This document shows positions 5,608 through 62,045 of a DNA stretch of 64,000 nt, in pieces (positions within the stretch are counted from its first letter, which is position 1; every line of letters starts with the position of its first letter). A program made the translations under genes and the position numbers. The stretch is from an uncultured Bacteroidia bacterium (GTDB lineage Bacteria > UBA4055): positions 613-64,612 of the forward strand of contig CAZYNH010000004.1 in the NCBI GenBank assembly GCA_964648295.1, in the 5' to 3' direction. Under the pieces are notes generated by a model. The model was not told the origin of the DNA. It did no database searches and saw nothing but the letters and a program-made list of their open reading frames with translations.

Positions 5608-7476
5608 ATGGCCATGAATTTATTTAGAATAAAAGAATTCCCGTCTGAAAAATCTTATCAGGATGCGGAGCTTCACTTATCAAAACAGGGTAAAAACTTT
5701 GTATTCATATGTAAACTGGAAGGAAAATATTTTGCGCAGTCTGACGATAATATATACGGAGCTTTTGACTCGGTAGAAAATGTAACATTTAGAAAAGAAG
5801 GAAAAATATTCGCCTTCAAGTCTTCAACTTTTTCAAAAAAATTAGGGGTTATAAAAGACGAAAATCAGGACTCTTTATACATTAACAATAAAATATTGGG
5901 CCCGTTCACAAAAATAAGGGATTTCAAAATAAACGACAATCTAACATATTACATATGGTATGAAACCTTCGGGAATTCGTATGTTATTATCAACAATAAC
6001 AAATTGGGAAGCTTTAAAAGCGTATATCAGGTAACTATGGCTCAGGACGGAACATCGTATGCTTTGATATACAAAGACGGCGGAAAAAAATATTTGCGAA
6101 TTAATGATGAAATATTTGGAGGATACGAAGAAATATTCGACTTTGTCTGCGATTATGAAAAAGGTTTTACCGGTTTTGTTTTCAAAAATTTATCAGGCGA
6201 GTATTACGCAAGAATTAATAACACGGAGATAGGTCCGTTCGGGAGTTGTACGGGTCTCAATTATTTTGCGGACATAAATAAATATCAGATTGAATACAAA
6301 AAAGACGCCGCAAATTTCATACAGATCAACGAAAGTGTTTTCTCGGGATCGGATACATATCAGGTAGAATTGATAAACGAATCTCTGGCTGTAATTAAAT
6401 GCTTCAAAGACAAATTGAGTTCTTATAATATCGTTGCCTGGGAGATCGGTTCTTTTAACGATGTTATTGAGTATCGGATAAGTAATTCAGGAAAGAAATT
6501 CATCTTTGTGTATGTAAAATTCAACCAGTATTTTGTTGTAGCCGGTGATTACGAATATGGCCCGTACAAAAAAGTCTCAAACTTATCAATAAGCCCGAAC
6601 GGAGAGAATTATTCATTTATTTTTACAAATCAGCATTACAATTATTATGCCAATATAAACGGGAATACTTACGGACCTTACATCTTAATAAACGAGACAG
6701 CTGTATCTGATTCACCCTCCGCCTTCGGATTTATTTTCCAGAGAAACTCTAAGTATTTTGTTAACATTTCCGACACGATACACGGAATGTATGATTCTGC
6801 TTTAAATTTAAAACTGTCACCCGACGGTTCCCTTTATTCATACATGTTCACTAAAAAAATAAAAATAAATCAGCTTTATTCAAAGCTGCAAAGTTATTTG
6901 TCACTTAATGGTGAAGTATCTGAAAATGACATAGCTATAATAGATCTTCAGAGAAACTCAATGCAAATAGAAGCAATCGTATTTAAAAAGAACTCAAAAT
7001 GGTATATCAGCCTTAACGAGACTATGTTCGGCCCTTATGACCATATAGCTGACTGGAGATTTTTAACCGACGAAACGCTTTTTTCATTCAGGTTCAAAAA
7101 CCTGCAATCTGATTTCTACAATCTTCAAATAAACGGCAGAACATATTATTCCCGAAACAAAAATCTGCAGGTACATTCACCCGTATTCAGCCGGGACGGA
7201 ACAAAATTTGCCTTTATTCATTATTCCGACATCCATTATTACATACAAATATGCGATCAAACCTACGGCCCTTTTGATCATGCCGACCTGCCGACTTTCT
7301 CACCGGACAGTAAAATGGCAGTATTCAGGTACATTGAGTCAAAAAAGACATATTTAAACATAAACGGCATGAAGACCGGACCTTTCGGAGTGGCTGAATA
7401 CACATTCTCTGACGGAAAGCTTTATACATGTTATCTTCAGGACAAGACGATCATAATTGACGAGATCACATGGTAA
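5608..7476 (+). CDS. Hypothetical protein with about 13-14 degenerate tandem repeats of ~37 aa (possible beta-propeller-like fold)
   Basis: Repeat consensus roughly YY-x-IN-x3-YGPY/F ... SPDG-x-Y-F, PD40-like but no confident family match. No signal peptide or TM helix. Last gene of the plus-strand kinase operon. Confidence 0.5.
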   Translation: MAMNLFRIKEFPSEKSYQDAELHLSKQGKNFVFICKLEGKYFAQSDDNIYGAFDSVENVTFRKEGKIFAFKSSTFSKKLGVIKDENQDSLYINNKILGPFTKIRDFKINDNLTYYIWYETFGNSYVIINNNKLGSFKSVYQVTMAQDGTSYALIYKDGGKKYLRINDEIFGGYEEIFDFVCDYEKGFTGFVFKNLSGEYYARINNTEIGPFGSCTGLNYFADINKYQIEYKKDAANFIQINESVFSGSDTYQVELINESLAVIKCFKDKLSSYNIVAWEIGSFNDVIEYRISNSGKKFIFVYVKFNQYFVVAGDYEYGPYKKVSNLSISPNGENYSFIFTNQHYNYYANINGNTYGPYILINETAVSDSPSAFGFIFQRNSKYFVNISDTIHGMYDSALNLKLSPDGSLYSYMFTKKIKINQLYSKLQSYLSLNGEVSENDIAIIDLQRNSMQIEAIVFKKNSKWYISLNETMFGPYDHIADWRFLTDETLFSFRFKNLQSDFYNLQINGRTYYSRNKNLQVHSPVFSRDGTKFAFIHYSDIHYYIQICDQTYGPFDHADLPTFSPDSKMAVFRYIESKKTYLNINGMKTGPFGVAEYTFSDGKLYTCYLQDKTIIIDEITW

Positions 7477-9780
7477 TCAGTTTTTGAGTATTTCTTTTAC
7501 GTTTTCGACTAAAGACTGTCTTGAAAAAGGTTTCTGTAAATAGATCTTATTTTTATCCAGCAGACTGAAATCCATTATAGTGCTTTCTGTATAGCCGGAC
7601 ATATATATGACCTTTGCCTCAGGGTACTTTTCGAGCAGCTTCTCACCTATCTCATCACCATTCATATCCGGCATGATAACATCCGTTATCAACAGATCAA
7701 TTTTTTCGGTTTCGTAAAATTTCATAATATCTTCAAAAGATGAGGCGCAAAAAACATTAAATCCTTCCTGCTCAAGCATTTTAGCCACTACATCCCTTAT
7801 TTCTTTCTCATCATCGATCACTACGATTTTTTCACCGTGCGGCTCTACATTCTCATACTGTTTGATCTCTTTCTCTATATATTCTTCAGCATCTGCTGAC
7901 GGAAGGTATATTTTGAAACAAGTCCCTCTACCGGGTTCGCTGTAACAGGACACATATCCGTTGCTCTGTTTCACTATCCCGTAAACCGTTGAAAGACCCA
8001 GTCCTGTACCCTTTCCCAAGCCTTTTGTGGTAAAAAACGGCTCAAATATTTTGTCCACTGTTTCTTTTGTCATTCCTGTACCGGTGTCAGTTACGGCAAT
8101 CATCGCATAACTTCCGGGTTTAAGTTCAGAGTATTTTTTTATATAATTATCATCTATCTTTACATTCTTAGTCTCTATCGTTATCTTCCCGCCTTTGGGC
8201 ATGGCGTCCCTTGCGTTGATCACCAGATTCATTATCACCTGATCCATCTGTCCTTTATCAGCCTTCACCGGACTGATCCGCGGTTCAAGAACAGCTACCG
8301 TGTCAATTCTCTCTCCGACCAGTCTTTTTATCATTTTCTCAAGATCGTTGACTATTGTATTCAGATCTATTATCTGAGGTTTCAGAACCTGTTTCCGGCT
8401 GAATGCGAGAAGCTGACTTGTCAGTTCGGCTGCCCGCTGCCCGCTTTTTTTTATCTCGATGATATCTTCCGTAAGAGTGTCATCATTCTTCGATCTTGCA
8501 AGTATTAAATCGCAGTTGCAGAGAACCACCATAAGCAGATTGTTAAAATCGTGAGCTATTCCGCCGGCCAAAAGACCAATCGCTTCCATTTTCTGAGATT
8601 GCCTGAACTGTTCCTCAAGCTCTTTCTGTTCAGTGACATCATGTACTATTCCAAGCATTTTTGCGGTCTTTCCGTACCTGTTCTTCTCGAATTGTGCTTT
8701 TACATGAATTTTCCTTAAAGAACCGTCCTTTCTTTTAATCGAATGAATTTTTTCAAAAGGCTTACACTCGTTTATTGCCCTTGTAAATTCGGCGTTGATT
8801 TCATCTCTTTCATCTTCCGGAATGAAACTCATATACAACTTATAGTCCGGTTTTGTTGAAGATTGATCTAATCCAAAAATTCTGTATACTTCATCAGTCC
8901 AGGTAAAATCCATTGTTTTACTGTCAAAGATCCAACTGCCGACATGCACAATTTCCTGTGTTCTTCTAAGCAGAGCTTCATTAGATTTTAATTTATTTTC
9001 AGCTTTGATCTTCATTGTCATATCCAGCCCCACACAGAGTAATCCCGAAATGTCAAAATATTCGTTCTTAATCTGCGACACATGCCATTCGACAAATAGA
9101 CTTCCCCCCTCTTTCTTTGTTATTCTTGTTACACAACTCGAATCGATTTCAGTTGTTAGGCACTTGGTAAAAAAATCGGCGGCTGATTTTTGATAATTAA
9201 GGGACACATAATTTTTTATAAGACTTTTATTCCTTGCTTCTTCCACTCTGTAGCCGGTTATATCTCTGAAAAACTCATTTACATTCACAATGTTGAATTT
9301 CCCGTCGATCACCATTATAATAGCTTTTGCAGTGTTTATTATGTTATCTGACAGCTGTTTTTGTGAGATCAGATTGTCAAGCGCTTTTTTTCTTTCGATA
9401 GAATGCCTTATAGCTCTTATTAGTGCGTCTTTATCAAATTTCCCTTTAATAAGATAATCCTGAGCCCCAATACTAAGCACTTTCTTTATTATCCTTATAT
9501 CGTCACTTCCTGTTAAGGCAATGACCGGTAAAGTGGGATTCTCGTTAATTATCATCATGGGAGCTTCAGCTCCCACGCACCCGGGCAGCCCGAGATCGAC
9601 AAGGGCAATATCATAGCGCATGAACTCAAAATCTTCCAGAGCACTGTCAATATCTTTAAAATGACTTATCTCAGCGTCCGCGTAATCGAGCATTTCTTCT
9701 ATCAGTACCGCGTCTCCGTCATTGTCTTCGACAATAGCGATCTTAAGATTTTTATCCATTTTTACATCTCCGTTCATCAT
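7477..9780 (-). CDS. Hybrid sensor histidine kinase: REC - PAS x2 - HisKA - HATPase_c - REC
   Basis: N-terminal REC (KIAIVEDNDGD, ALVDLGLPG), PAS regions, H-box (IAHDFNNLL), HATPase (VTDTGTGM, GLGKGTGLGLS), C-terminal REC (KIVVIDDE, LLITDVIMPDMNG). True start may be the internal Met at about 9759. Confidence 0.85.
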   Translation of the reverse strand: MMNGDVKMDKNLKIAIVEDNDGDAVLIEEMLDYADAEISHFKDIDSALEDFEFMRYDIALVDLGLPGCVGAEAPMMIINENPTLPVIALTGSDDIRIIKKVLSIGAQDYLIKGKFDKDALIRAIRHSIERKKALDNLISQKQLSDNIINTAKAIIMVIDGKFNIVNVNEFFRDITGYRVEEARNKSLIKNYVSLNYQKSAADFFTKCLTTEIDSSCVTRITKKEGGSLFVEWHVSQIKNEYFDISGLLCVGLDMTMKIKAENKLKSNEALLRRTQEIVHVGSWIFDSKTMDFTWTDEVYRIFGLDQSSTKPDYKLYMSFIPEDERDEINAEFTRAINECKPFEKIHSIKRKDGSLRKIHVKAQFEKNRYGKTAKMLGIVHDVTEQKELEEQFRQSQKMEAIGLLAGGIAHDFNNLLMVVLCNCDLILARSKNDDTLTEDIIEIKKSGQRAAELTSQLLAFSRKQVLKPQIIDLNTIVNDLEKMIKRLVGERIDTVAVLEPRISPVKADKGQMDQVIMNLVINARDAMPKGGKITIETKNVKIDDNYIKKYSELKPGSYAMIAVTDTGTGMTKETVDKIFEPFFTTKGLGKGTGLGLSTVYGIVKQSNGYVSCYSEPGRGTCFKIYLPSADAEEYIEKEIKQYENVEPHGEKIVVIDDEKEIRDVVAKMLEQEGFNVFCASSFEDIMKFYETEKIDLLITDVIMPDMNGDEIGEKLLEKYPEAKVIYMSGYTESTIMDFSLLDKNKIYLQKPFSRQSLVENVKEILKN

Positions 9781-10189
9781 TTTTTTTCATAAATTCGTCG
9801 ATACTCTTAAAAACATCGAAAAAATCGCCGAGATCCATAGGTTTTGTAATATATTCGCTTGCCTTGTACCTGTAACAGCTGTTGATATCGCTCTCGCTGT
9901 TCGAAGTGGAAAAAACTATTACGGGTAATGATTCCGTCTTGGGTTCATTTTTTAGAATCTGAAGAATCTCAAGCCCGGTCATGCCAGGCAGGTTCAGATC
10001 CAGAAGTATCACATCCGGTCTCGGGTTCTTTTCCTCATACAGATATTCGAGAGCCTGATCGCCGTTGTATAGGTGGACAATACGGGATTCAGAACCGTTA
10101 TGAGCAAGAGCTTCCCGCGCCAGCACGGCATCACCCTCGTTATCCTCCACGAGCAGGATCAGATATTTTTTGGTTCTACACATTTTCAT
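9752..10189 (-). CDS. Single-domain response regulator (CheY/Rcp1-like receiver)
   Basis: LILLVEDNEGD, DVILLDLNLPGMTG, VIVFSTSN, YITKP. No output domain. Confidence 0.85.
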   Translation of the reverse strand: MKMCRTKKYLILLVEDNEGDAVLAREALAHNGSESRIVHLYNGDQALEYLYEEKNPRPDVILLDLNLPGMTGLEILQILKNEPKTESLPVIVFSTSNSESDINSCYRYKASEYITKPMDLGDFFDVFKSIDEFMKKNDERRCKNG

Positions 10190-11786
10190 CCCACCTATTG
10201 AGCGTAAAAATGAACCTTGTGCTTTTTCCTTTTTCGGACTCGGCCCGGATCATTCCGCCGTGCCTTTCAATTATCTTTTTTACGATCGCAAGGCCTATAC
10301 CCGTTCCCGGGTATTTGTCCTGCGAATGAAGCCTGTGAAATATTCGGAAAATATTTCCTGTATGTCTCAAGTCCATCCCGATTCCGTTATCTTCAACGGT
10401 TATTCTGACTTTTCCCTGAATTTCCGCCTCCTCAGCTTTTATATGAATTTCAGGAACTAATTCGGTCTTTCTAAATTTTATCGCATTTCCTAAAAGATTC
10501 TGAAACACGGAAATGATCTGCGATCTGTCACCGAGAACAACGGGAAGGCTGTCATAGCTGATCATCGCCCCGGTTTCGACAACAGACGATGATAGGTTTT
10601 TTAAAGCTTCCTTTACCGCTTCGTTCAGATCCACATTACCGAAAGGATCGCGCTGCGTGGTCACCCTCGAATAAGCCAGCAAACCCTGTATCTGGGCCTG
10701 CATTCTCTTGGCTCCGTCAACAGAATAGTTTATGTATGTTTTAGCCTCATCATTCAAAACAGATCCATATTTTTTAATAAGAAGGTCGCTGAATCCCGAC
10801 ACCATTCTCAAAGGCTCCTGAAGATCGTGCGAGACTGTATAGGCGAAGTCTTGAAGCTCCCTGTTGGAATTTTCGAGCTTTTTTTCGTACTCCTTAATTT
10901 CTGTTATATCTACAATCGCGCCTATCAGGCCCGTAATATTTTCCAGATGGTCAACAAGAGCGGCTTTGTGAAATACTACATTCCTGATTCCTCCGGACTT
11001 ATTAGCAAACTTCCACTCGTAGATCTGCGTTCCGCCTTTTTCAAAAAGTTCTTTGTCCATTTCATCGTATTTGAGAGCGATCTCTTCAGGGGCTATATCG
11101 TAAACGGTTTTTCCTATGATCTGATCTTCTTTCATTCCCAGCATTCTTGCGAATTCGCTGTTACAGCCCAGATACATTCCTTTTGAATCTTTATAGAATA
11201 TCGGAAGGGGTGCGTTGTTCAAAAGCGTTCTGAACAGCTCTCTGCTTTCCTCAAGCTTTATCCTGGCATCAACAAGTTCCGTTACATCTCTGAATACCCC
11301 GTAGCTGGAAACGAATTTACCGTCATCGTCGTAATTCGGACTTACTGTAACTTCAATAATTTTGGTATTTCCTTTGTTCGTTACTATCTTAAGTTCATAT
11401 TTTTCAGAAAAACCTTTTTTTCGATTTTCAGTACCTTTTTTGATCTTTTGCATTTCTTCCGAGTTGAGGAATTCGGATAAATTTTTCCCTATCAGATTTC
11501 TGCTTTCGCATTCGAATATGATCTCGGCCGCATTGTTCGCATATAAGAAAAATTCGTTCTCGTCTACAATGCCTATACCGTCTCCTACGGTTTCAACGAG
11601 CTTGTGATATTTTCTCTCTTTTTCGATCAGCTCTTTTTCTGCCGATATTCTTCTTTCAAGCTCCACCCTGTATGCCTTATTTTTCCTGATCAGATCCCTT
11701 CTGACGGACAGAAGCCAGATAAGAGACAGTACAAGTATAAGTGAAAGAAACATTTCTAAAAAAATGTGATCAGGGAAAATCGTCAT
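10176..11786 (-). CDS. Membrane-anchored PAS sensor histidine kinase
   Basis: N-terminal TM helix, two PAS regions, HisKA (YTVSHDLQEPLRMV), HATPase (VEDNGIGM, GTGIGLAIVKKI). 4-nt overlap with the upstream gene. Confidence 0.85.
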   Translation of the reverse strand: MTIFPDHIFLEMFLSLILVLSLIWLLSVRRDLIRKNKAYRVELERRISAEKELIEKERKYHKLVETVGDGIGIVDENEFFLYANNAAEIIFECESRNLIGKNLSEFLNSEEMQKIKKGTENRKKGFSEKYELKIVTNKGNTKIIEVTVSPNYDDDGKFVSSYGVFRDVTELVDARIKLEESRELFRTLLNNAPLPIFYKDSKGMYLGCNSEFARMLGMKEDQIIGKTVYDIAPEEIALKYDEMDKELFEKGGTQIYEWKFANKSGGIRNVVFHKAALVDHLENITGLIGAIVDITEIKEYEKKLENSNRELQDFAYTVSHDLQEPLRMVSGFSDLLIKKYGSVLNDEAKTYINYSVDGAKRMQAQIQGLLAYSRVTTQRDPFGNVDLNEAVKEALKNLSSSVVETGAMISYDSLPVVLGDRSQIISVFQNLLGNAIKFRKTELVPEIHIKAEEAEIQGKVRITVEDNGIGMDLRHTGNIFRIFHRLHSQDKYPGTGIGLAIVKKIIERHGGMIRAESEKGKSTRFIFTLNRWDENV

Positions 11787-13288
11787 ATATTTTTATCCTT
11801 CGCCGAATTTGGAATGCTGAATTTTAAAACAGCGCCTTTATTTTTGCCGTCCGATTCTGCCCATATCCTTCCGCCCTGTCTTTCGATTATTCTTTTACAA
11901 AGAGCGAGACCGATCCCGTCCCCGGGTTTATCAGCGGCTTCCGAGAGCCTTTTGAATATAACGAATACCTTTTCAATATCCTCCTCTTTGATCCCGATAC
12001 CGTTATCCTTTACATATATTATCACTTCATCACCCTGCGAATTTTTCAAGTCCGATCCTATCTCAATTAAACATTTTTCATCTTCTTTCCTGAATTTTAT
12101 CGCGTTCCCTATCAGGTTTTGAAAAACATGCGTGATCTGATCCGGTTCTACCATTACATCAGGAAGGTCTTTGTATCTGATCTCAGTCCCTGTTTCCTGA
12201 ATTGTCAAGTTGAGATTATAAACAGCATTCTTCAGAGGTATAGACAGATTGATCAGAGTCTTTTCTTTCTTTCTCGAACCGATCCTTGAGTATTCGAGAA
12301 GTCCTCTGACGAGATTCTGCATCCTTCTCGTGTTGGTTACAATATAATCAAGGTAACCCTTAGCTTCATCATTCAGCCTATGGGTATGTTTAAGTTCGAG
12401 AAGCTGCGAAAAACTCGATATGATCCTTAACGGTTCCTGAAGGTCATGCGATGCAATAAAAGCGAACTGCTCAAGCTCTTTGTTGGATGCCTCAAGTGCT
12501 TCCTTTTCCTTTATAAGTTCCTTCAGGAGCTGTTTTTTATCGGTTATGTCCTGCGACAGCTTTAAAAAATTCGTTATGTTTCCTTTATCGTCAAATATCG
12601 GTCCGACTGTTGCTCCTTCCCAGTAAAGTTCTCCGCTTTTCTTTCTGTTCCTGAACTCCCCTTTCCATATATTTCCGGATTTTATTACATCCCACAATTC
12701 TTTATACTCATTTTCGCTCATTTCTCCGGACTTCAGAATTTTGGGATTTTTGTAAATAACCTCTTTAAAAGTATAACCTGTAACCTGAGTAAAGCGCGGA
12801 TTCACATATTCGACATTTCCATTTGTATCGGTCATTAAGATAATGGACGGGCTCTGGTTGACCGCGGCAGTCAGTTTTAAAAGTTCCGAATGTTCTTTCG
12901 ACGCTTTTTTTCTATTCTCGTATTCTTTGATCTCTCTTTCTATCGTCGGCACAAGTTTCCTCAGCTTGTCTTTCATTATGAAATCATTTGCGTCGTTGCG
13001 CATGAGATCAACGGCTTTTTCTTCTCCTATAGTGCCTGAAACAAGTATAAAAGGTATCTCAGTATCTTTTTCCCGTAAAATCAAGAGAGCTTCCTCTCCG
13101 TTAATGTCGGGCAGATTAAAATCTGAAAGGACTATATCGGGTTGTTTTTCATTCAAAAATTTCCTGAATTCTTCTTTATTCTTACAAATAGAGATTTCTT
13201 TTTCAGTCTTGAGCTTTTTTAACTCATACAGCACAAGATCAAGGTCGCTCTCGTTGTCTTCAAGTATTAGTATGCGTATCTTATCCAT
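11783..13288 (-). CDS. Hybrid histidine kinase: REC - PAS - HisKA - HATPase_c
   Basis: REC (IRILILEDNESD, IVLSDFNLPDING), PAS (YVNPRFTQVTGYTFKEV), HisKA (IASHDLQEPLR), HATPase (VKDNGIGI, GDGIGLALCKRI). Confidence 0.85.
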   Translation of the reverse strand: MDKIRILILEDNESDLDLVLYELKKLKTEKEISICKNKEEFRKFLNEKQPDIVLSDFNLPDINGEEALLILREKDTEIPFILVSGTIGEEKAVDLMRNDANDFIMKDKLRKLVPTIEREIKEYENRKKASKEHSELLKLTAAVNQSPSIILMTDTNGNVEYVNPRFTQVTGYTFKEVIYKNPKILKSGEMSENEYKELWDVIKSGNIWKGEFRNRKKSGELYWEGATVGPIFDDKGNITNFLKLSQDITDKKQLLKELIKEKEALEASNKELEQFAFIASHDLQEPLRIISSFSQLLELKHTHRLNDEAKGYLDYIVTNTRRMQNLVRGLLEYSRIGSRKKEKTLINLSIPLKNAVYNLNLTIQETGTEIRYKDLPDVMVEPDQITHVFQNLIGNAIKFRKEDEKCLIEIGSDLKNSQGDEVIIYVKDNGIGIKEEDIEKVFVIFKRLSEAADKPGDGIGLALCKRIIERQGGRIWAESDGKNKGAVLKFSIPNSAKDKNI

Positions 13289-35597: not shown

Positions 35598-36491
35598 TTA
35601 AAGCCATTTGTATATTTCAGGATCCCATTTTAGCGTTAGATCGGAAGGATTAATTACAGGCACGATAAAATTCTTAATATCTGATATTATGGCAGAAAAA
35701 GATTCCGGTAATCCGTTCTGTCTGATCTTTTTTCTAAACGCTTTCCATTGTACTGTCTTAGATTCTGCAAAATCATTAGAAAAAGCTGTTATGTTTCGAT
35801 CTAGTATGACATTCCTATGATTAAAAGTCTTTTGTAATGATTCAGACAATATTCTCATTTCAAAAGTAAAATTATGCGAAAGCAGCCAGATATCATAAAA
35901 ATCTTTCATGCGGCTGTTCAAAATCCCGAGAGTCGTCATCGCTTCAAACTTCTCTGCTATAGCAGTTTCTTTAGAATAGCTTAAAATAACAGGATTAGGA
36001 AAATCAAGAATAACCGGGAATTCAATCTTCTGAGGCTCAGGAAAAGTCAGGTCGTTAAATCCGACATCAACCTGCATATAAATTCTTGCTGTATCAAGTT
36101 TTGCATAGAAGGTAACTCTCACACCGTGATATTCGGCATCATGTTTGATGAGGGCAGTGCTGATCGTTTCGGAAAAGAATTTTATTCCGTCATCTTCTAC
36201 CTTTGTATTTAAGATATTCCTGAATACTTCTCTGATATTTTCTTCTGAGTTTTCAAGTTTTCCCAAAAGATCAATATCCTTTGTCAGCCTGAGATTACTA
36301 TTTCTCCAAATTGTAAAAAGTAATGCTCCTTTAAGAATAAACCTGTCTGAATATTCCGATCTTGAAATTCTGTATAATAATCTTTCCATTGCGTAAAGGT
36401 TCAGGATTTCATCGAATTGTACTGTTTCCGTTTTAGACTTGTTTTTGAGTCTTTCTCTGACCGAAAATGCCATATTTTTAATTACTTTCAT
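35598..36491 (-). CDS. AbiEii/AbiGii-family nucleotidyltransferase toxin (type IV TA / abortive infection)
   Basis: N-terminal region typical of DUF1814/AbiEii (ERLLYRISRSEYSDRFILKGALLF, DIDLLG); about 297 aa; 4-nt overlap with the upstream AbiEi-like gene. Confidence 0.75.
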   Translation of the reverse strand: MKVIKNMAFSVRERLKNKSKTETVQFDEILNLYAMERLLYRISRSEYSDRFILKGALLFTIWRNSNLRLTKDIDLLGKLENSEENIREVFRNILNTKVEDDGIKFFSETISTALIKHDAEYHGVRVTFYAKLDTARIYMQVDVGFNDLTFPEPQKIEFPVILDFPNPVILSYSKETAIAEKFEAMTTLGILNSRMKDFYDIWLLSHNFTFEMRILSESLQKTFNHRNVILDRNITAFSNDFAESKTVQWKAFRKKIRQNGLPESFSAIISDIKNFIVPVINPSDLTLKWDPEIYKWL

Positions 36492-37093
36492 ACTACTGCC
36501 TCAAGATATGGCTGCATCACTTTAACAACACGGCTCATTTTTGCGTATTCATATATTTTATTTACATCCATTCTGCCTCGTTCACGGTAAAACTTCAGAG
36601 CTTCGATCGCTACATCAAGACCGATCTTATTTCTGAACCTGAAACAGTCCACAAGTGTTTTTTCCGGATCATAAACTTTTATTTTTACTCCGTCAATTGT
36701 ATGCTCTTCGATCCCGGCTGAATAAATATCCGGTTTCAGATAATGCACATCAAGACGAATTCCGTTTACTGTCGGAGGTCTGGATCTTTCGATTATGGCG
36801 ATACTTACAGATCTTTGTATCTGTGTTGTCATTCTATGAAAAACGAGTGCGGATATCAGAAAAATTACTGCTTTTGATGATTTTGAGCAAACAAGCTGAA
36901 TATCCGGATAAGAAAAGTTCTGAGCTGATGCGAGTCTGTAAACTCCTCTCGTAATTTTTTCGAAAATACCCTTCTTTACCATCGAAGAAAGGTGATAACG
37001 GCTTATACCAGACCTGACAGCTTCAGACATTCTCATCTGACCGCCATGTTCTCTGAATATTTCCAGCATTTTTTTAGTCATAACATTGAACAT
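36488..37093 (-). CDS. AbiEi-family antitoxin / transcriptional regulator
   Basis: N-terminal wHTH-like segment (EAVRSGISRYHLSSMVKKGIFEKITRGVYRL); size and position immediately upstream of the AbiEii-like gene. Confidence 0.7.
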   Translation of the reverse strand: MFNVMTKKMLEIFREHGGQMRMSEAVRSGISRYHLSSMVKKGIFEKITRGVYRLASAQNFSYPDIQLVCSKSSKAVIFLISALVFHRMTTQIQRSVSIAIIERSRPPTVNGIRLDVHYLKPDIYSAGIEEHTIDGVKIKVYDPEKTLVDCFRFRNKIGLDVAIEALKFYRERGRMDVNKIYEYAKMSRVVKVMQPYLEAVV

Positions 37094-37179
37094 AATGTTT
37101 GTAATTATACATAACTAACGACAATATGTATAATATTTTACTATAAGTCAAGCAATATTTATAATATTTTACGCTTGAA

Positions 37180-38112
37180 TTAAAATGAATCACTTTGCTT
37201 CCCCAATCTACTCAGCATTTCTACTGCTTGAATATCCATCCTTGAAAACCCGAACCACTTTTTGCCCAAATCTTTTAGTGAAGCTCCGAAATGATAGATA
37301 ATATTTTCATCAATTATTATAAATCTGTCGTGCGAATTACTGAACTCTACAATTTCCACAGGTTCATACTGCTCGTTGAACTTCTTAACATCAAGCTTGA
37401 GCTGATCAGATACCGACTTGGAATAGATCGAGGCCTTAACTCCCGTTATTCTCTTTGACAACATCGTTAAGACTGAATCATCAATATAGTTATCTATGAT
37501 CAGAATTGACTTCTCCGCGCTTTTGAAAATATCGGATACGAATTTATATGCATCATATACCTGGCCATCATAGAATACTCCACTCTTCTGCTTAACTTCT
37601 CCGCTTTCCATTAATGAAAACAGTTTATCGAACTTTTGATCATAATCAATCTGTTTAAGCTCTATTCTATCAAGTCTTTGAAATACCTGAGCATTAGTCT
37701 GAATAAATTTCCTCATTTCAATAAAAGCACTCATAATTCTCACACTGATCTCAATGGCTGTTTTACTATTAAGAACTGCCGATAGCATAGCAACACCCTG
37801 CTCTGTAAAAACATAAGGAAGATATTTTCTGTGCTGACCTCTTCCATCTGTTTTTATGGTGACAAATTGGCACCTTAAAGAAATATATTCAGTTTCATTT
37901 AATTGAAAACAAAACGAACTCGGAAATCGTTCTGAATTCCGTTTCATCACTCGATTAAGATATTTGGTCTCAACCCTGTACAACTCTGCCAAGTCTCTGT
38001 CCAGCATCACCTGGAATCCCCGGATCGAATATATCTTTTCTCTGATCTTGCTCTCGAACTTTTCCAATTCATACTCCGACATAACCGCCTCTCCAACATT
38101 ACTTTTACGCAA
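37180..38112 (-). CDS. ORF6N (KilA-N-like) domain-containing protein
   Basis: N-terminal ORF6N-like segment (IYSIRGFQVMLDRDLAELYRVETKYLNRVMKRNSERFP); C-terminal half unrecognised. Start probably the internal Met at MSEYEL. Confidence 0.6.
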   Translation of the reverse strand: MRKSNVGEAVMSEYELEKFESKIREKIYSIRGFQVMLDRDLAELYRVETKYLNRVMKRNSERFPSSFCFQLNETEYISLRCQFVTIKTDGRGQHRKYLPYVFTEQGVAMLSAVLNSKTAIEISVRIMSAFIEMRKFIQTNAQVFQRLDRIELKQIDYDQKFDKLFSLMESGEVKQKSGVFYDGQVYDAYKFVSDIFKSAEKSILIIDNYIDDSVLTMLSKRITGVKASIYSKSVSDQLKLDVKKFNEQYEPVEIVEFSNSHDRFIIIDENIIYHFGASLKDLGKKWFGFSRMDIQAVEMLSRLGKQSDSF

Positions 38113-38169: not shown

Positions 38170-38745
38170 CTATTTCCCGTGGCCGGTAATATTGTTCTTG
38201 AATTTGATCAGGCGCTCATAAGCTCTCTGAAGGGTCCTGTCGGCCTCTTCTTTTATTACCTCAATGTCTTTTAGCCTGACCGAGCTGGTATTTTTGCATT
38301 TTTTGCATTCAAAGATCAGTTTTTCCCCTCTTTCGATCCTGTCTGCGTCCCAGAAGTCCTCTCCGCATATAGCGCAGCACGGCCCTTTTACGGCGGGAAA
38401 ATCCTTGTTCAGCGTCTTGTCGGTCATGTACGAATGATAGAAAGCTAAGGACCCGAGTTTCAGCCCAAGTTCATCTTCACCTTTCATTGCTTTCTTCGCT
38501 TTTTCACGGTTCAGGAGCATGCCTATGTATAAACCCGTGAAGATGAATACTACCACTCCCGGTACCACGAACAGCAGAAACGCCATAAAACGCATATTCG
38601 AGACTATCATATCCCTGTTGATTATTAAAGAGGCCAGGAACACTGCCATCACAAAGCTCAATACGGCTCCGCTGACGATAGGGTGTCTGACGAAATATTC
38701 GTTTATTTTCTCAAAAAATTCTTTTTTCTTAAACTGCCCTGTCAT
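38170..38745 (-). CDS. Hypothetical membrane protein with C-terminal zinc-ribbon-like Cys cluster
   Basis: Two or three TM helices followed by CCAICGEDFWD ... CKKCKN. Confidence 0.4.
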   Translation of the reverse strand: MTGQFKKKEFFEKINEYFVRHPIVSGAVLSFVMAVFLASLIINRDMIVSNMRFMAFLLFVVPGVVVFIFTGLYIGMLLNREKAKKAMKGEDELGLKLGSLAFYHSYMTDKTLNKDFPAVKGPCCAICGEDFWDADRIERGEKLIFECKKCKNTSSVRLKDIEVIKEEADRTLQRAYERLIKFKNNITGHGK

Positions 38746-45973: not shown

Positions 45974-46444
45974 TTATAAATTGAAGTTAATTATCGGCAA
46001 AAGGAAAAATATCGGACTGTTCTTATTGTAGTTGATAAGCCCGATCTGGAAATTCGCGCCGCCGCCCTGAACGATATTTACCAGACCGAGCTGCAGTCCC
46101 GTCAGGTTCTGGCCGGTGTGGTTGACAAGCCCCCACTGAAGTCCCTTCATATTAGCGGAAGTGGAAAATATCTCGGCGAGCTGGATCCCTGTAGTATTAC
46201 CCTTGTTGAAGTTGACCCAGTTCCATTGCAGACCTGCGAAATTCGAGTTTACCTGGCTTACGAATCCAAGATCAAGTCCTGTCACATTCGAGTTAGCGCT
46301 GTGAACCAGATTTATCTTGACACCTTTAATGCTTTCACCCTCGCCCGTGAGCTGAAGCGGATTCACGATACCTATCTGAAAAGGCTTTTCCGCGAAGAGC
46401 GACACGCTTAATGCAACCAGAAGTAGCGTAATCAGTTTTTTCAT
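45974..46444 (-). CDS. Secreted hypothetical protein with short tandem repeats
   Basis: Signal peptide (MKKLITLLLVALSVSLFA); about five repeats of ~20 aa with core TGLQ(L/W)G(L)VN. Confidence 0.4.
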   Translation of the reverse strand: MKKLITLLLVALSVSLFAEKPFQIGIVNPLQLTGEGESIKGVKINLVHSANSNVTGLDLGFVSQVNSNFAGLQWNWVNFNKGNTTGIQLAEIFSTSANMKGLQWGLVNHTGQNLTGLQLGLVNIVQGGGANFQIGLINYNKNSPIFFLLPIINFNL

Positions 46445-53649: not shown

Positions 53650-54570
53650 TCACTGTTTGATCTCCGGATTCAAAACCACTTTTTCCGGCGCACCCCAGAT
53701 TTTCATATTTCTCTTTCCCCATCTTTCGGGATATAGTTTCTTGGCTTCATCCATAACGGCGTTACGCTTTGTAAAAATCATTTTTGCTTCACCGCTTCTC
53801 ATCTGTGCCGGAGTAACATAATCCACAGACGAATGAAGGTGATCATTGTTATACCAGTTTACGAAGTCAGCCATCCATTCTCTCGCATGATTTATGTCTT
53901 TGAAGCGTAGCGGATACTTCGGATCGTACTTTAAAGTTTTGAAGAACGATTCGATGTAGGGATTATCATTGCTGGTTCTCGGACGGCTGAACGACACATT
54001 GACTTTAAGCTCGCTTAAAAGAGCCATCAGGGTTACGCCTTTCATTATCGAACCGTTATCGGAATGTAGATAGCTGAACTTGATATTTCTTCCGCATAAA
54101 ATACTTTTGAAAAGCTCTTCGCTGTGCTCATCTTTTTCTTCTTCGTAAACTGCCCAGCCGACGATGCATTTATCGAAAATATCTATTATCATATAGGCAT
54201 AAAAGAAAAGGCCTTTTATAAGCGCGGGAAGCCATGTTACATCCCAGCACCATACCTGATCGGATCTTGTGGCTGTACGCTCGGGCGGTCTGGACTGCTT
54301 TCTACGCTTTGCAGGACGAACCAGACTGGCTGTTTTCAAGATTCTGTAAAATGTTCTGACCGAACCATAATATATAGTGTTGTCAAGAAGCATAGGCACA
54401 ACTTTATGCGGGCTGAGATCACGGTACTCAGGCTCGTTGCATACATTTATTATTTCCTGACGCTCATCCGGTTCAAGCTTTCTTATTACTTTTGTATGCG
54501 ATCCTTTTCTCCTGTCTATCAAGCCTATCTTTCTCCACCTTTGTAAGGTTCTTTTATCAATGCCTACCAC
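53650..54570 (-). CDS. IS3-family transposase OrfB (integrase/rve catalytic domain)
   Basis: DDE/rve motifs (WCWDVTW, YLHSDNGS, NDNPYIESFFKTLK). Confidence 0.9.
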   Translation of the reverse strand: MVGIDKRTLQRWRKIGLIDRRKGSHTKVIRKLEPDERQEIINVCNEPEYRDLSPHKVVPMLLDNTIYYGSVRTFYRILKTASLVRPAKRRKQSRPPERTATRSDQVWCWDVTWLPALIKGLFFYAYMIIDIFDKCIVGWAVYEEEKDEHSEELFKSILCGRNIKFSYLHSDNGSIMKGVTLMALLSELKVNVSFSRPRTSNDNPYIESFFKTLKYDPKYPLRFKDINHAREWMADFVNWYNNDHLHSSVDYVTPAQMRSGEAKMIFTKRNAVMDEAKKLYPERWGKRNMKIWGAPEKVVLNPEIKQ

Positions 54571-54653
54571 TTCACAAGCCTTGAATTGTCTGGCACCGTT
54601 TGCACGAGCTTCATCTATCAGGACGACTATCTCTGATTTTACTACCTCAGGGA

Positions 54654-55151
54654 TCAGTCGTCCCCGTCTTCCCCCAAAAGAGTCTCTAATTTTTTTTTTA
54701 GCACAAGCAAAGCTGCTGTTTCTGCGAGTGCTTTTTCTTTCCTTGCAAGTTCCTTCTCAAGCTCTTTATTCCGCTTCATAAGCTCGCGGAGTTTCTTATC
54801 TTTTTTGTCTTCCTTTTTCGTTACCATTTCTCTAAGCTCCTGATCCCATAATTTTAAATGTTCCGAGTGAAGTCCCCGTTCACGCAGAAATTCTCCCAGT
54901 TTCTCTTCAGGTAGCCTGGCTGATTCCATCAGAAGCTGGTATTTTTCCTTACTGCTCAGGTGACGAAGACTCTTGTTAACTTGTACAGTATCAAATATAC
55001 CATCTTTTTTCTGTTTTATCCAATTACGAATTGTCTGTTCGCTGAACCCAAACTGCCGACTTGTGCCTCTAATACTCTTGCTTTCAGGCGGTAACACTTT
55101 CTTTAAAACTCCGATCTTTATTGATCGTGAATACTCCATTTGTTCCTCCAA
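54654..55151 (-). CDS. IS3-family transposase OrfA (HTH + leucine zipper)
   Basis: HTH (GTSRQFGFSEQTIRNWIKQ), Lys/Glu-rich zipper, KKK encoded by an 11-nt A-run near the 3' end (candidate frameshift site). Confidence 0.85.
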   Translation of the reverse strand: MEEQMEYSRSIKIGVLKKVLPPESKSIRGTSRQFGFSEQTIRNWIKQKKDGIFDTVQVNKSLRHLSSKEKYQLLMESARLPEEKLGEFLRERGLHSEHLKLWDQELREMVTKKEDKKDKKLRELMKRNKELEKELARKEKALAETAALLVLKKKLETLLGEDGDD

Positions 55152-55408: not shown

Positions 55409-55660
55409 CTATTCGTAAGCTTCTTTCCTGTGCTTGATCCTCAATACAAGTACTGTGCTATCAGAAGTTATTGAGTAAATTATTCTGTAATCGCCAACTC
55501 TGAACTTTCGGAGGCCGGCAAATTTTCCTTTCAGCTCAGGATACTGGTCCGGTTTTTCTGCAAGATCTTTTTCAATTTTATCGAATATCCGTTTGATCTG
55601 CTTTTTATCAATGCCTTTCAGATCCTGAGTAACAGAATTTTTGAAAGATATGTTATACAT
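55409..55660 (-). CDS. RelE/ParE-family type II toxin
   Basis: 83 aa ending ...FRVGDYRIIYSITSDSTVLVLRIKHRKEAYE; overlaps the upstream antitoxin gene by 8 nt. Confidence 0.75.
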   Translation of the reverse strand: MYNISFKNSVTQDLKGIDKKQIKRIFDKIEKDLAEKPDQYPELKGKFAGLRKFRVGDYRIIYSITSDSTVLVLRIKHRKEAYE

Positions 55661-59274: not shown

Positions 59275-59302
59275 AATCCGTTTTTTTGGTATAAATATTG
59301 TC

Positions 59303-59331
59303 TTGACAATGTATAAGTGCTAAAATAAATT
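59303..59331 (+). promoter_or_regulatory. Candidate sigma70-type promoter for the LKR/SDH operon
   Basis: TTGACA, 17-nt spacer, TAAATT, about 30 nt before the GAGGAG RBS and ATG. Consensus may not apply to this lineage. Confidence 0.35.
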
Positions 59332-59364
59332 CCAACGCTTAAAAAATTATTGAGAGGAGTCTCC

Positions 59365-60663
59365 ATGGCAAGCACAGTAGGAATAAGATACGAAGACAAA
59401 TATGAACTCGAGAGAAGAGTTCCGCTTGTACCTGAGGATATCAAAAAACTTACAGGTGAAGGACTTCGCATACAAGTTCAGTCGTCGGAGAAAAGGATAT
59501 TCGGAGACTCGGAGTACAGCCGGGCCGGGGCGGAGATAGTTCCAGATATGAAAAATGCTGATGTCATATTCGGCGTCAAAGAGGTAACGATCCCTTCTTT
59601 TGAACAAAATAAAACTTATGTCTTTTTCTCACATATAATCAAAGGCCAGTCATACAATATGCCGATGCTCAGATCAATGATCGAGAAAAAAGTGAACCTG
59701 ATCGATTACGAAAAAGTTACGGACGAAAAAGGAAGAAGACTTATATTCTTTGGTAACTACGCGGGTCTTGCCGGCATGATCGATACGATATGGGCTCTTG
59801 GCCTCAGGCTGAAATATATGGGCATTGACACACCGTTTATCAAGCTCAAGCAGGCAAGAATGTACAACTCGCTTGAAGAAGCTAAATCAGATCTCAGAGA
59901 TATTTCAGCGGAGATAGCGGAAAAAGGCCTTCCTGAAGAAATATGTCCGCTTACAGTCGGGTTTACCGGGTACGGGAATGTGTCGAAAGGTGCTCAGGAA
60001 ATATTCAACATCCTGCCTTTCAAGGAAATTTCACCCGCTGAACTTCCCGGTCTGAATAATTCAAAGACATCTAACAAAAAGCTTTATAAAACAGTGTTCA
60101 AAGAAGAGCATCTGGCCGAAAGAAAAGACGGATCCCAGTTCATTCTACAAGATTATTATGATCACCCTGAATTGTTCAGCGGCACTTTTGAGAAATACAT
60201 CCCGCATCTTTCAGTCATGATGAACTGCGTTTTCTGGACAGAAAAATATCCCAGGCTCGTGACAAAAAAATATTTAAAAGCTAATCACACCGGTTCGTCA
60301 AAGCTTCTCGCTATCGGGGATGTAACATGCGATGTACACGGATCTGTGGAATGCACTGAGCTGGGTACGCCTATTAACGACCCGATTTATGTCTACGATC
60401 CCGTAAAAGGAACACATAAAATGGGATACACAGGCGACGGACTTTTAATAATGAGCGTGGATATTCTTCCGAGCGAGCTGCCGAGAGAATCTTCGGAGTT
60501 CTTCAGCAGAGAACTTTATCCGTTCGTCAAATCTATTGCCTCTTGCGATTTTTCCGCCGGGTATGAAGACCTTTCTCTTCCCGTTGAGATAAAAAAAGCC
60601 CTGATCCTTCATAAAGGGGAATTTACGCCGGACTATAGATACATACAGAATTTTCTAAAATAA
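59365..60663 (+). CDS. Lysine-ketoglutarate reductase (LKR)-like protein, homologous to the N-terminal domain of eukaryotic bifunctional AASS
   Basis: Start refined to the ATG at 59365 after a GAGGAG RBS. Collinear conserved blocks versus the AASS LKR domain as recalled (IRYEDKYELERRVPLVPEDIK, FFSHIIKGQ, LIDYEKV, GTGNVSKGAQEIFN). Confidence 0.75.
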   Translation: MASTVGIRYEDKYELERRVPLVPEDIKKLTGEGLRIQVQSSEKRIFGDSEYSRAGAEIVPDMKNADVIFGVKEVTIPSFEQNKTYVFFSHIIKGQSYNMPMLRSMIEKKVNLIDYEKVTDEKGRRLIFFGNYAGLAGMIDTIWALGLRLKYMGIDTPFIKLKQARMYNSLEEAKSDLRDISAEIAEKGLPEEICPLTVGFTGYGNVSKGAQEIFNILPFKEISPAELPGLNNSKTSNKKLYKTVFKEEHLAERKDGSQFILQDYYDHPELFSGTFEKYIPHLSVMMNCVFWTEKYPRLVTKKYLKANHTGSSKLLAIGDVTCDVHGSVECTELGTPINDPIYVYDPVKGTHKMGYTGDGLLIMSVDILPSELPRESSEFFSRELYPFVKSIASCDFSAGYEDLSLPVEIKKALILHKGEFTPDYRYIQNFLK

Positions 60664-60669
60664 ACGGAG

Positions 60670-62013
60670 ATGAAAATGAAAAAAGTACTGATACTTGGCG
60701 CAGGAATGGTCGTAAAACCGATAGTCACATATCTTTTAGACCACAAATTCCAGGTAACCGTAGCTACAAGAACAAAATCCAAAGCAGATGAAATGATCGC
60801 AGGCCACAAGAACGGCAAGTCTGTTGCGTGGACTGTCGAAGATGAAAAAACGCTTGACAAGATGATCAAAGAACACGATCTGACAGTGAGCCTTCTGCCC
60901 TGGATGCACCACATAATGGTGGCAAAACACTGCATAAAGAACAAAAAGAACATGGTGACGACATCTTATGTCAAACCTGAGATGAAAGCTCTGGAAGCGG
61001 AAGCAAAAAAAGCGGGCATCATCATACTTAACGAACTTGGCCTTGATCCCGGAATAGATCACATGTCGGCCATGAGGATAATTGACCATATCCACAATAA
61101 AAAAGGCAAGGTCGTAGAATTCTATTCATTCTGCGGAGCGCTCGTTGCGCCGGAAGTGGAAAAGAACCCGTTCAACTACAAGTTCACATGGGCTCCCAAA
61201 GGCGTTGTAATGGCCGGAAATAATGACGGGAAATATCTCCGTCACGGTAAAGTCAAATACATTCCGACAGCCGACCTTTTCAAAAAACCTCTTAAAGTCG
61301 ATTTCCCCAAAGTCGGAAAACTCGAGGTTTATCCAAACAGAGATTCCTTGCCATACATTGAGCTTTACGGAATACCTGAAACAAAAACAATGTTCAGGGG
61401 GACTTTCAGATATCCTAAATGGTGTCAGGTACTTACCGCAATGAAAGAAATGAACCTGATTTCTTACGACAAGATCAATCTGAAAGATAAAAGCTACGCT
61501 GATTTCATGGCCGGCCAGATTGGTGAAAAAAGCTCCAAGGATATTAAATCCAAGGTGGCGAAATTCCTGAAAGTATCAGAAAGATCAAATCCTCTGAAAG
61601 CTCTTGAATGGCTTGGCCTTTTCTCGAACAAAAAAATCGGCCGTGTTGAAGATTCACCTTTCGAGATCGTATCGGATCTCATGCTTGAAAAAATGATGAT
61701 AGCTGATCACGAGAGGGATATGGTCGTCATGCAGCATACATTCGTTGCCGAATACAAAGGCGGAAAAAGAGAGGTCATTAAATCAAGAATGCTGGATTTC
61801 GGAACTCTTGAAACAGACACTTCCATAGCCAGGACCGTTGCTTTACCCGCGGCTGTCGGAGTCAAAATGATCCTTGACGGCGAGATAAAAGAAAAAGGTG
61901 TTCACATTCCGGTACTGCCCGGTATATACAACCCGATCTTAGACGCTTTGGAGCACATGAATATAAAAATGGTTGAGGAATACGGACTTCCGGAGTCGGA
62001 AACGATTAAATAA
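60670..62013 (+). CDS. Saccharopine dehydrogenase (SDH)-like protein, homologous to the C-terminal domain of AASS
   Basis: Rossmann N-terminus (KKVLILGAGMV) and conserved blocks (SLLPWMHH, MVTTSYV, LNELGLDPGIDHMSAM, FTWAPKGV, YPNRDSLPY). Confidence 0.8.
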   Translation: MKMKKVLILGAGMVVKPIVTYLLDHKFQVTVATRTKSKADEMIAGHKNGKSVAWTVEDEKTLDKMIKEHDLTVSLLPWMHHIMVAKHCIKNKKNMVTTSYVKPEMKALEAEAKKAGIIILNELGLDPGIDHMSAMRIIDHIHNKKGKVVEFYSFCGALVAPEVEKNPFNYKFTWAPKGVVMAGNNDGKYLRHGKVKYIPTADLFKKPLKVDFPKVGKLEVYPNRDSLPYIELYGIPETKTMFRGTFRYPKWCQVLTAMKEMNLISYDKINLKDKSYADFMAGQIGEKSSKDIKSKVAKFLKVSERSNPLKALEWLGLFSNKKIGRVEDSPFEIVSDLMLEKMMIADHERDMVVMQHTFVAEYKGGKREVIKSRMLDFGTLETDTSIARTVALPAAVGVKMILDGEIKEKGVHIPVLPGIYNPILDALEHMNIKMVEEYGLPESETIK

Positions 62014-62045
62014 GAGAAGGGGGCTGATGCCCCTTTTTTTTTATT
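62014..62045. terminator. Bidirectional rho-independent terminator between the SDH-like gene and a convergent kinase gene
   Basis: GAAGGGGGCtgatGCCCCttttttttt; the T-run overlaps the last codons of the minus-strand gene. Confidence 0.65.

Follow-up and report, generated by a model that had tools for sequence, protein, structure and literature searches.

Does an uncultured bacterium of the UBA4055 lineage (Bacteroidia) encode both enzymes of the saccharopine pathway as separate proteins, and, if so, does it use them to break lysine down or to make it? The question is raised by two adjacent genes, here called open reading frames (ORFs) A and B, on a 64,000-nucleotide stretch of the contig CAZYNH010000004.1 (assembly GCA_964648295.1, positions 613 to 64,612 of the forward strand); this whole stretch was analysed and is referred to as the window. 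We propose that the two genes form an operon encoding the saccharopine shunt as separate polypeptides, and that its physiological role is lysine breakdown, a reading to which we assign a probability of roughly 75%. Both genes lie on the plus strand at the positions reported in an initial annotation of this DNA, and the locus comprises the following features (window coordinates):

59298–59336, plus strand: candidate sigma-70-type promoter, TTGACA (59303–59308), 17-nt spacer, TAAATT (59326–59331)
59352–59359, plus strand: Shine-Dalgarno-like GAGAGGAG, read from the sequence, separated from the ORF A start codon (ATG) by 5 nt
59365–60663, plus strand: ORF A, 432 amino acids, putative monofunctional lysine-2-oxoglutarate reductase (LKR, also LOR; saccharopine dehydrogenase, L-lysine-forming type)
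60664–60669, plus strand: intercistronic spacer ACGGAG, directly after the TAA of ORF A, containing the ribosome-binding GGAG for ORF B
60670–62013, plus strand: ORF B, 447 amino acids from the ATG at 60670, putative saccharopine dehydrogenase (SDH)/saccharopine reductase (L-glutamate-forming type)
62012–62041, plus strand: intrinsic terminator directly 3' of the ORF B stop codon, with a GC-rich hairpin and then a T-run

In line with the initial annotation, which had claimed a split LKR and SDH gene pair collinear with the two corresponding domains of human AASS, both proteins aligned over their full length with solved structures of these families. Residues 5–429 of ORF A aligned with residues ~26–464 of the human AASS LOR domain (E 1.9e-79, 271 bits, 36% identity), whose structures 8e8u and 8dda were matched full length, and the Pfam domains AlaDh_PNT_N (PF05222, 1.7e-26) and AlaDh_PNT_C (PF01262, 8.2e-7) both exceeded their gathering scores. 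Elsewhere the scores were much lower, with 84 bits for yeast Lys1 and about 30 bits or less for alanine dehydrogenase and transhydrogenase (E 1e-6 for alanine dehydrogenase); an identification of ORF A as alanine dehydrogenase was rejected, the NCBIfam model TIGR00518 giving 31 bits against a cut-off of 391.85. R18 and R125 of ORF A aligned with R18 and R131 of yeast Lys1, which we take to be the substrate-binding arginines, and A133-G134 aligned with human A154-G155, the Ala-Gly of the nicotinamide pocket that is conserved from yeast to human. Moreover, K72 and H90 aligned with K77 and H96 of yeast Lys1, the catalytic Lys/His acid-base pair whose roles are described by Kumar et al. (2012). 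ORF A also has the insertions and the C-terminal segment that set human LOR apart from Lys1; according to the paper on the human LOR structure, the C-terminal segment is essential for activity, and the ORF A alignment, which extends to human residue 464, spans most of it. Together, these alignments support the assignment of ORF A to the LKR (AASS-LOR) family.

Assignment of ORF B to the SDH (Lys9/AASS-SDH) family is likewise supported. The Pfam domains Sacchrp_dh_NADP (PF03435, 3.8e-25) and Sacchrp_dh_C (PF16653, 2.1e-77) were found, and the protein aligned with yeast Lys9 (2axq; residues 4–428, E 1.8e-87, 297 bits) and with the saccharopine reductase of Magnaporthe grisea (1e5q; residues 2–428, E 3.1e-86, 293 bits), at 37% identity to both fungal enzymes, as well as with the SDH domain of human AASS (5l78; residues 4–428, E 1.4e-78, 268 bits). 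For both ORFs, the E-values of these alignments lie far outside the range of chance. The archaeal protein PH1688 scored 58 bits. An identification as carboxyspermidine dehydrogenase was rejected, since the structure 8deb matched only the N-terminal 130 residues, that is, the Rossmann part (E 8e-4, 21.7 bits). The initial annotation had named placement among polyamine-biosynthesis or alanine-dehydrogenase-like enzymes as the outcome that would overturn its proposal, and the scores for these enzymes (about 22 and 30 bits) point away from it. In a neighbour-joining tree of SDH sequences, the eukaryotic enzymes, a bacterial clade B that includes ORF B and a bacterial clade A formed three deep branches of one family. 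When published active-site residues of Lys9 (Y99, D126 and C154) were placed onto 2axq, the numbering offset was inconsistent, and for ORF B we make no claim at the level of single residues beyond its cofactor motif.

For a comparison of gene neighbourhoods we used 80 related loci, of which L001 and L002 come from the two nearest genomes. An SDH homolog was present within the fetched flank in 61 of the 80 loci and lay directly downstream of the LKR gene (start within 200 nt) in 45, and the order PurC-STAS-LKR-SDH was common to the window, L001 and L002. The ORF A start listed above coincides with the aligned ATG at which the homologs of L001 and L002 begin, which makes a longer version starting from the TTG at 59350 unlikely. 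Translation of ORF B could begin at either of two in-frame ATGs separated by 6 nt (60670 and 60676), and the second is likely the true start, giving a protein of 445 amino acids (MKKVLILG...), because MKKVLILG begins both closest orthologs (L001 and L002) and a GGAG sits 6 nt upstream. Automated calls of the longest ORF would thus give ORF B two extra residues. The initial annotation had placed the genes 6 nt apart; this holds for the longest ORF B, and with the likelier start the gap is 12 nt. The GGAG in front of the likelier start would fit translational coupling of the two genes in one operon.

A promoter upstream of the pair had also been suggested, and the candidate listed above was the top consensus match of our scan (10 of 12 positions). 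The scan found 12 matches, compared with 6.7 ± 2.8 expected in shuffles, and a consensus match alone is weak evidence of a promoter; the candidate gains credibility because CTTGACA and GCTAAAATAAATT are invariant across the window, L001 and L002, amid intergenic sequence that otherwise differs. At the other end, the terminator scan returned 13 pairs followed by T8, with a predicted RNA fold of -18.5 kcal/mol (z = -4.0 relative to shuffles), and this terminator is probably shared with a convergent histidine-kinase gene. The conserved promoter block, the tight spacing and the terminator thus delimit a compact two-gene transcription unit.

What would such an operon do? In the proposed scheme, ORF A would condense the epsilon-amino group of L-lysine with 2-oxoglutarate and reduce the resulting imine with NAD(P)H to saccharopine, K72 and H90 serving as the acid-base pair. 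ORF B would re-oxidise saccharopine at the other C-N bond, likely with NADP+ as cofactor, to yield L-glutamate and 2-aminoadipate 6-semialdehyde, which would equilibrate with delta-1-piperideine-6-carboxylate. The net result would be a redox-neutral transfer of the epsilon-nitrogen of lysine to 2-oxoglutarate, and in the host, presumably a peptide-degrading, Delongbacteria-like bacterium, the reactions would run in the direction of lysine breakdown. The sequences show the family membership, the catalytic residues, the anatomy of the operon and the conserved linkage, whereas the catalytic activities, the cofactors, the direction and the fate of the semialdehyde are inferred. The catabolic direction is favoured because Ruegeria pomeroyi, the only bacterial system tested, degrades lysine in this way, and because the several large peptidases encoded in the window fit amino-acid catabolism. 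The initial annotation had left open whether the pair serves catabolism or synthesis in the reverse direction, and we agree with this caution.

Several observations weigh against lysine breakdown. The reactions are reversible in vivo, as yeast Lys1 and Lys9 expressed in Escherichia coli degrade lysine. At the end of the second beta-strand of the Rossmann fold, ORF B reads VATRT (residues 31–35), where the fungal NADPH enzymes have VACRT and the human NAD+ domain has VGSDM; ORF B therefore carries the Arg-Thr of the NADPH-dependent biosynthetic enzyme of fungi and is without the Asp of the NAD+-dependent catabolic enzyme of animals, and we infer that it prefers NADP(H). In ORF A, K246-E247 occupy the position of human S266-R267, the residues reported in the human LOR structure paper to contact the 2'-phosphate of NADPH, and the triplet F-K-E that replaces the human L-S-R was conserved in all 81 bacterial LKR sequences compared (ORF A and 80 homologs). 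Judged from the alignment, ORF A does not have the Ser-Arg site that separates EC 1.5.1.8 from EC 1.5.1.7, and its membership of the LKR family is unaffected by this. An attempt to read the cofactor of ORF A from these residues was abandoned as ambiguous, as K246 could bind the phosphate and E247 the ribose hydroxyls. Taken as a whole, the cofactor pattern would fit the lysine-forming direction at least as well. The ORFs of at least 150 amino acids in the 64-kb window include no aldehyde dehydrogenase (PF00171), nor did one occur in the 80 loci among neighbours of 440–560 amino acids lying up to 8 kb from LKR; the pair is thus not accompanied by a linked gene for the third step of the classical pathway. 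Moreover, an Rfam scan of the region upstream of the pair detected no lysine riboswitch and no other Rfam element.

Differences in cofactor signature were also seen between SDH genes of related loci. In many Bacteroidales loci one LKR gene was followed by an additional, divergent SDH paralog with 37–41% identity to ORF B; its nearest structure was the human SDH domain, and it had an Asp at the cofactor site (NAD-type). The partner of LKR thus varies, being an NADP-type SDH as in the window, the NAD-type paralog, or both in a row. Two SDH genes 3' of one LKR gene were present in eight loci (L027, L039, L043, L045, L048, L052, L063 and L068), in all of which the NAD-type paralog was the one adjoining LKR; seven had the order LKR, NAD-type, NADP-type within ~1.8 kb, and in L048 the second SDH gene was 6.6 kb away. 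The arrangement in one of these loci is given here in its own coordinates:

9430–10770 and 10888–12261, locus L039: two SDH paralogs

In a few members of the ORF B clade, the Arg of the cofactor motif was replaced by Asp, Glu or Asn.

The absence of a linked semialdehyde dehydrogenase across 80 loci, a reductase without the animal NADPH motif and a variable SDH partner leave room for the idea that, in the Delongbacteria/Bacteroidota clade, many members of which are probably anaerobes, LKR-SDH is a free-standing, cofactor-tuned module and not the entry to classical lysine oxidation. We regard this as rather unlikely; if it were true, the two reactions might proceed both ways or towards lysine, and the module might feed the production of piperideine-6-carboxylate or pipecolate or balance NADH against NADPH.

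A second explanation retains both enzymes and reverses them, as in the fungi: aminoadipate semialdehyde and glutamate would be joined to saccharopine by ORF B at the expense of NADPH, and ORF A would then release lysine and 2-oxoglutarate with NAD+. The nearest structures of ORF B are indeed fungal biosynthetic enzymes with which it shares the VA(C/T)RT motif, and both the uniform F-K-E of the bacterial reductases, in place of the L-S-R of the NADPH-dependent human enzyme, and the lack of a downstream catabolic gene linked to the pair would fit such a role. The bacterial clade of ORF B is, however, separate from the fungal clade in the neighbour-joining tree, and the shared Arg-Thr motif is therefore no sign of a specific fungal affinity. 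Furthermore, neither the window nor the conserved neighbours yielded genes of the alpha-aminoadipate pathway, such as those for homocitrate synthase or aminoadipate reductase, and bacteria normally synthesise lysine via diaminopimelate. We consider lysine formation by this pair to be unlikely.

That the two enzymes act on other substrates, in an opine-type or polyamine-type reductive condensation, is quite improbable: enzymes with other substrates exist within both superfamilies, the pair has no linked gene for an aminoadipate semialdehyde dehydrogenase, and the two divergent SDH paralogs beside one LKR gene in many Bacteroidales leave room for diverged specificity, but ORF A and ORF B share 36–37% full-length identity with authentic LKR and SDH enzymes with the catalytic residues kept in ORF A, fused AASS proteins of eukaryotes stand directly among its ranked homologs, the polyamine-type structure 8deb covers only the Rossmann part of ORF B, and the alanine dehydrogenase model falls far below its cut-off (31 against 392 bits).

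Returning to lysine breakdown through saccharopine as the preferred reading, we asked how widespread such gene pairs are. Among 8,000 candidates scored in a word-indexed homolog search, 7,515 were homologs of ORF A at E<=1e-10, mostly from metagenome-assembled genomes (MAGs) of Bacteroidota, and the best were MAG proteins of ~435 amino acids. Several homologs already bear the NCBI name 'bifunctional lysine ketoglutarate reductase/saccharopine dehydrogenase family protein', and the JGI name is 'alpha-aminoadipic semialdehyde synthase'. An exhaustive search of 50%-identity representatives yielded 670 clusters at E<=1e-30; the top representatives were proteins of 430–440 amino acids, the only source-named one being bacterial (Balneolaceae), followed by fused proteins of 900–1,100 amino acids, of which the source-named ones were eukaryotic AASS (Andalucia, Pharyngomonas and Pigoraptor). 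In a collection of one genome per species, 429 stretches contained a relative of ORF A. The initial annotation had called the enzymes eukaryote-type and the pathway uncommon in bacteria. Neither description fits the thousands of monofunctional bacterial homologs of ~435 amino acids, found mainly in Bacteroidota, nor the conserved adjacency of SDH and the fact that such genes have been published.

The nearest LKR relatives were those of 'bacterium UBP11_UBA4055' (78% identity) and of a Candidatus Delongbacteria MAG (73%), followed by Bacteroidales sequences (52–59%), and the bacterial character of the window itself is evident from its genes for LptF/LptG, Mfd, TadA, PurC and many histidine kinases. 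Two loci labelled as a Thermoplasmata archaeon (L080) and as Polyangia (L042) carried LKR genes that were 52–58% identical to ORF A and typical of Bacteroidales, which could reflect a binning error or horizontal transfer. Recurrent neighbours of the pair in Bacteroidales were housekeeping genes (a TerB-DnaJ protein, a porin, pyruvate phosphate dikinase and PEP carboxykinase). In L001 the SDH gene was followed by an ORF of 346 amino acids without a Pfam match (10102–11142), and an ORF of the same length followed SDH in L002; it was absent from the window.

Separate bacterial lkr and sdh genes were reported by Serrano et al. (2012, FEBS Lett), with a follow-up by Neshich et al. (2013, ISME J), and published text on Ruegeria (Silicibacter) pomeroyi DSS-3 describes experimentally verified lysine catabolism through saccharopine with a separate lkr gene (SPO3307). 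As in that organism, the window encodes monofunctional LKR and SDH proteins in neighbouring bacterial genes homologous to the two AASS domains. Unlike it, the window pair belongs to a Delongbacteria-like lineage with relatives mainly in Bacteroidales MAGs; its genes are 6–12 nt apart with nothing between them and no aminoadipate semialdehyde dehydrogenase nearby, a comparison that concerns lineage and gene arrangement. The R. pomeroyi lkr and sdh genes are reportedly contiguous. With the bifunctional AASS of humans and animals (EC 1.5.1.8 and 1.5.1.9; 8e8u, 5l78), the pair shares the collinearity of both halves and the conserved catalytic residues, but it consists of two polypeptides, has K246-E247 in place of S266-R267 in ORF A, and has Arg-Thr in place of the human Ser-Asp in ORF B. 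The fungal enzymes Lys9 (EC 1.5.1.10; 2axq, 1e5q) and Lys1 (EC 1.5.1.7; 3ugk) are separate polypeptides too, and Lys9 provides the best structural match and the cofactor motif of ORF B, as Lys1 shares the catalytic residues of ORF A; in contrast, the fungal genes are unlinked and biosynthetic, the clade of ORF B is distinct from theirs, and for ORF A the similarity to animal LKR (271 bits) far exceeds that to Lys1 (84 bits). In the literature searched for saccharopine together with Bacteroidetes, only passing mentions in genome annotations were present (Prevotella intermedia, Porphyromonas gingivalis and Bizionia). The window pair is an uncharacterised addition to the described split lkr/sdh pairs, from a clade abundantly represented in Bacteroidota MAGs.

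Other features of the window were noted alongside. About a dozen consecutive genes for PAS-domain histidine or hybrid kinases occupy 1012–27495 on both strands, an unusually dense signalling cluster, and the sensor domains of several of these kinases are of the periplasmic solute-binding (SBP_bac_3, NMT1) or 5TMR-LYT type. On the minus strand, an AbiEi antitoxin/AbiEii nucleotidyltransferase toxin pair adjoins a gene for an ORF6N-domain protein (35598–38112); the GC content of this stretch is low (0.36), it directly follows a high-GC stretch (0.51 at 32–34 kb), and it may represent a small mobile or defence islet. Also on the minus strand are an IS3-type insertion sequence (53650–55151), in which an HTH_Tnp_1 ORF precedes an rve integrase-core ORF, and an ORF of 83 amino acids (55409–55660) that by eye resembles a putative RelE/ParE-type toxin. 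ORFs at 5608–7476 (plus strand), 38170–38745 (minus strand) and 45974–46444 (minus strand), one of which encodes 622 amino acids, had no Pfam match, and neither a tRNA gene nor an Rfam family reaching its gathering score was found anywhere in the 64-kb window.

Although the pair touches no long-standing open question, its recognition provides a correct functional annotation, that of a module for the interconversion of lysine and saccharopine, in an uncultivated lineage. Moreover, it corrects the idea that saccharopine chemistry is rare in bacteria, the split pair being widespread in Bacteroidota MAGs. The direction of the reactions, their cofactors, the missing linked third enzyme and the SDH paralogs with opposite signatures would matter for modelling amino-acid turnover in anaerobic communities.

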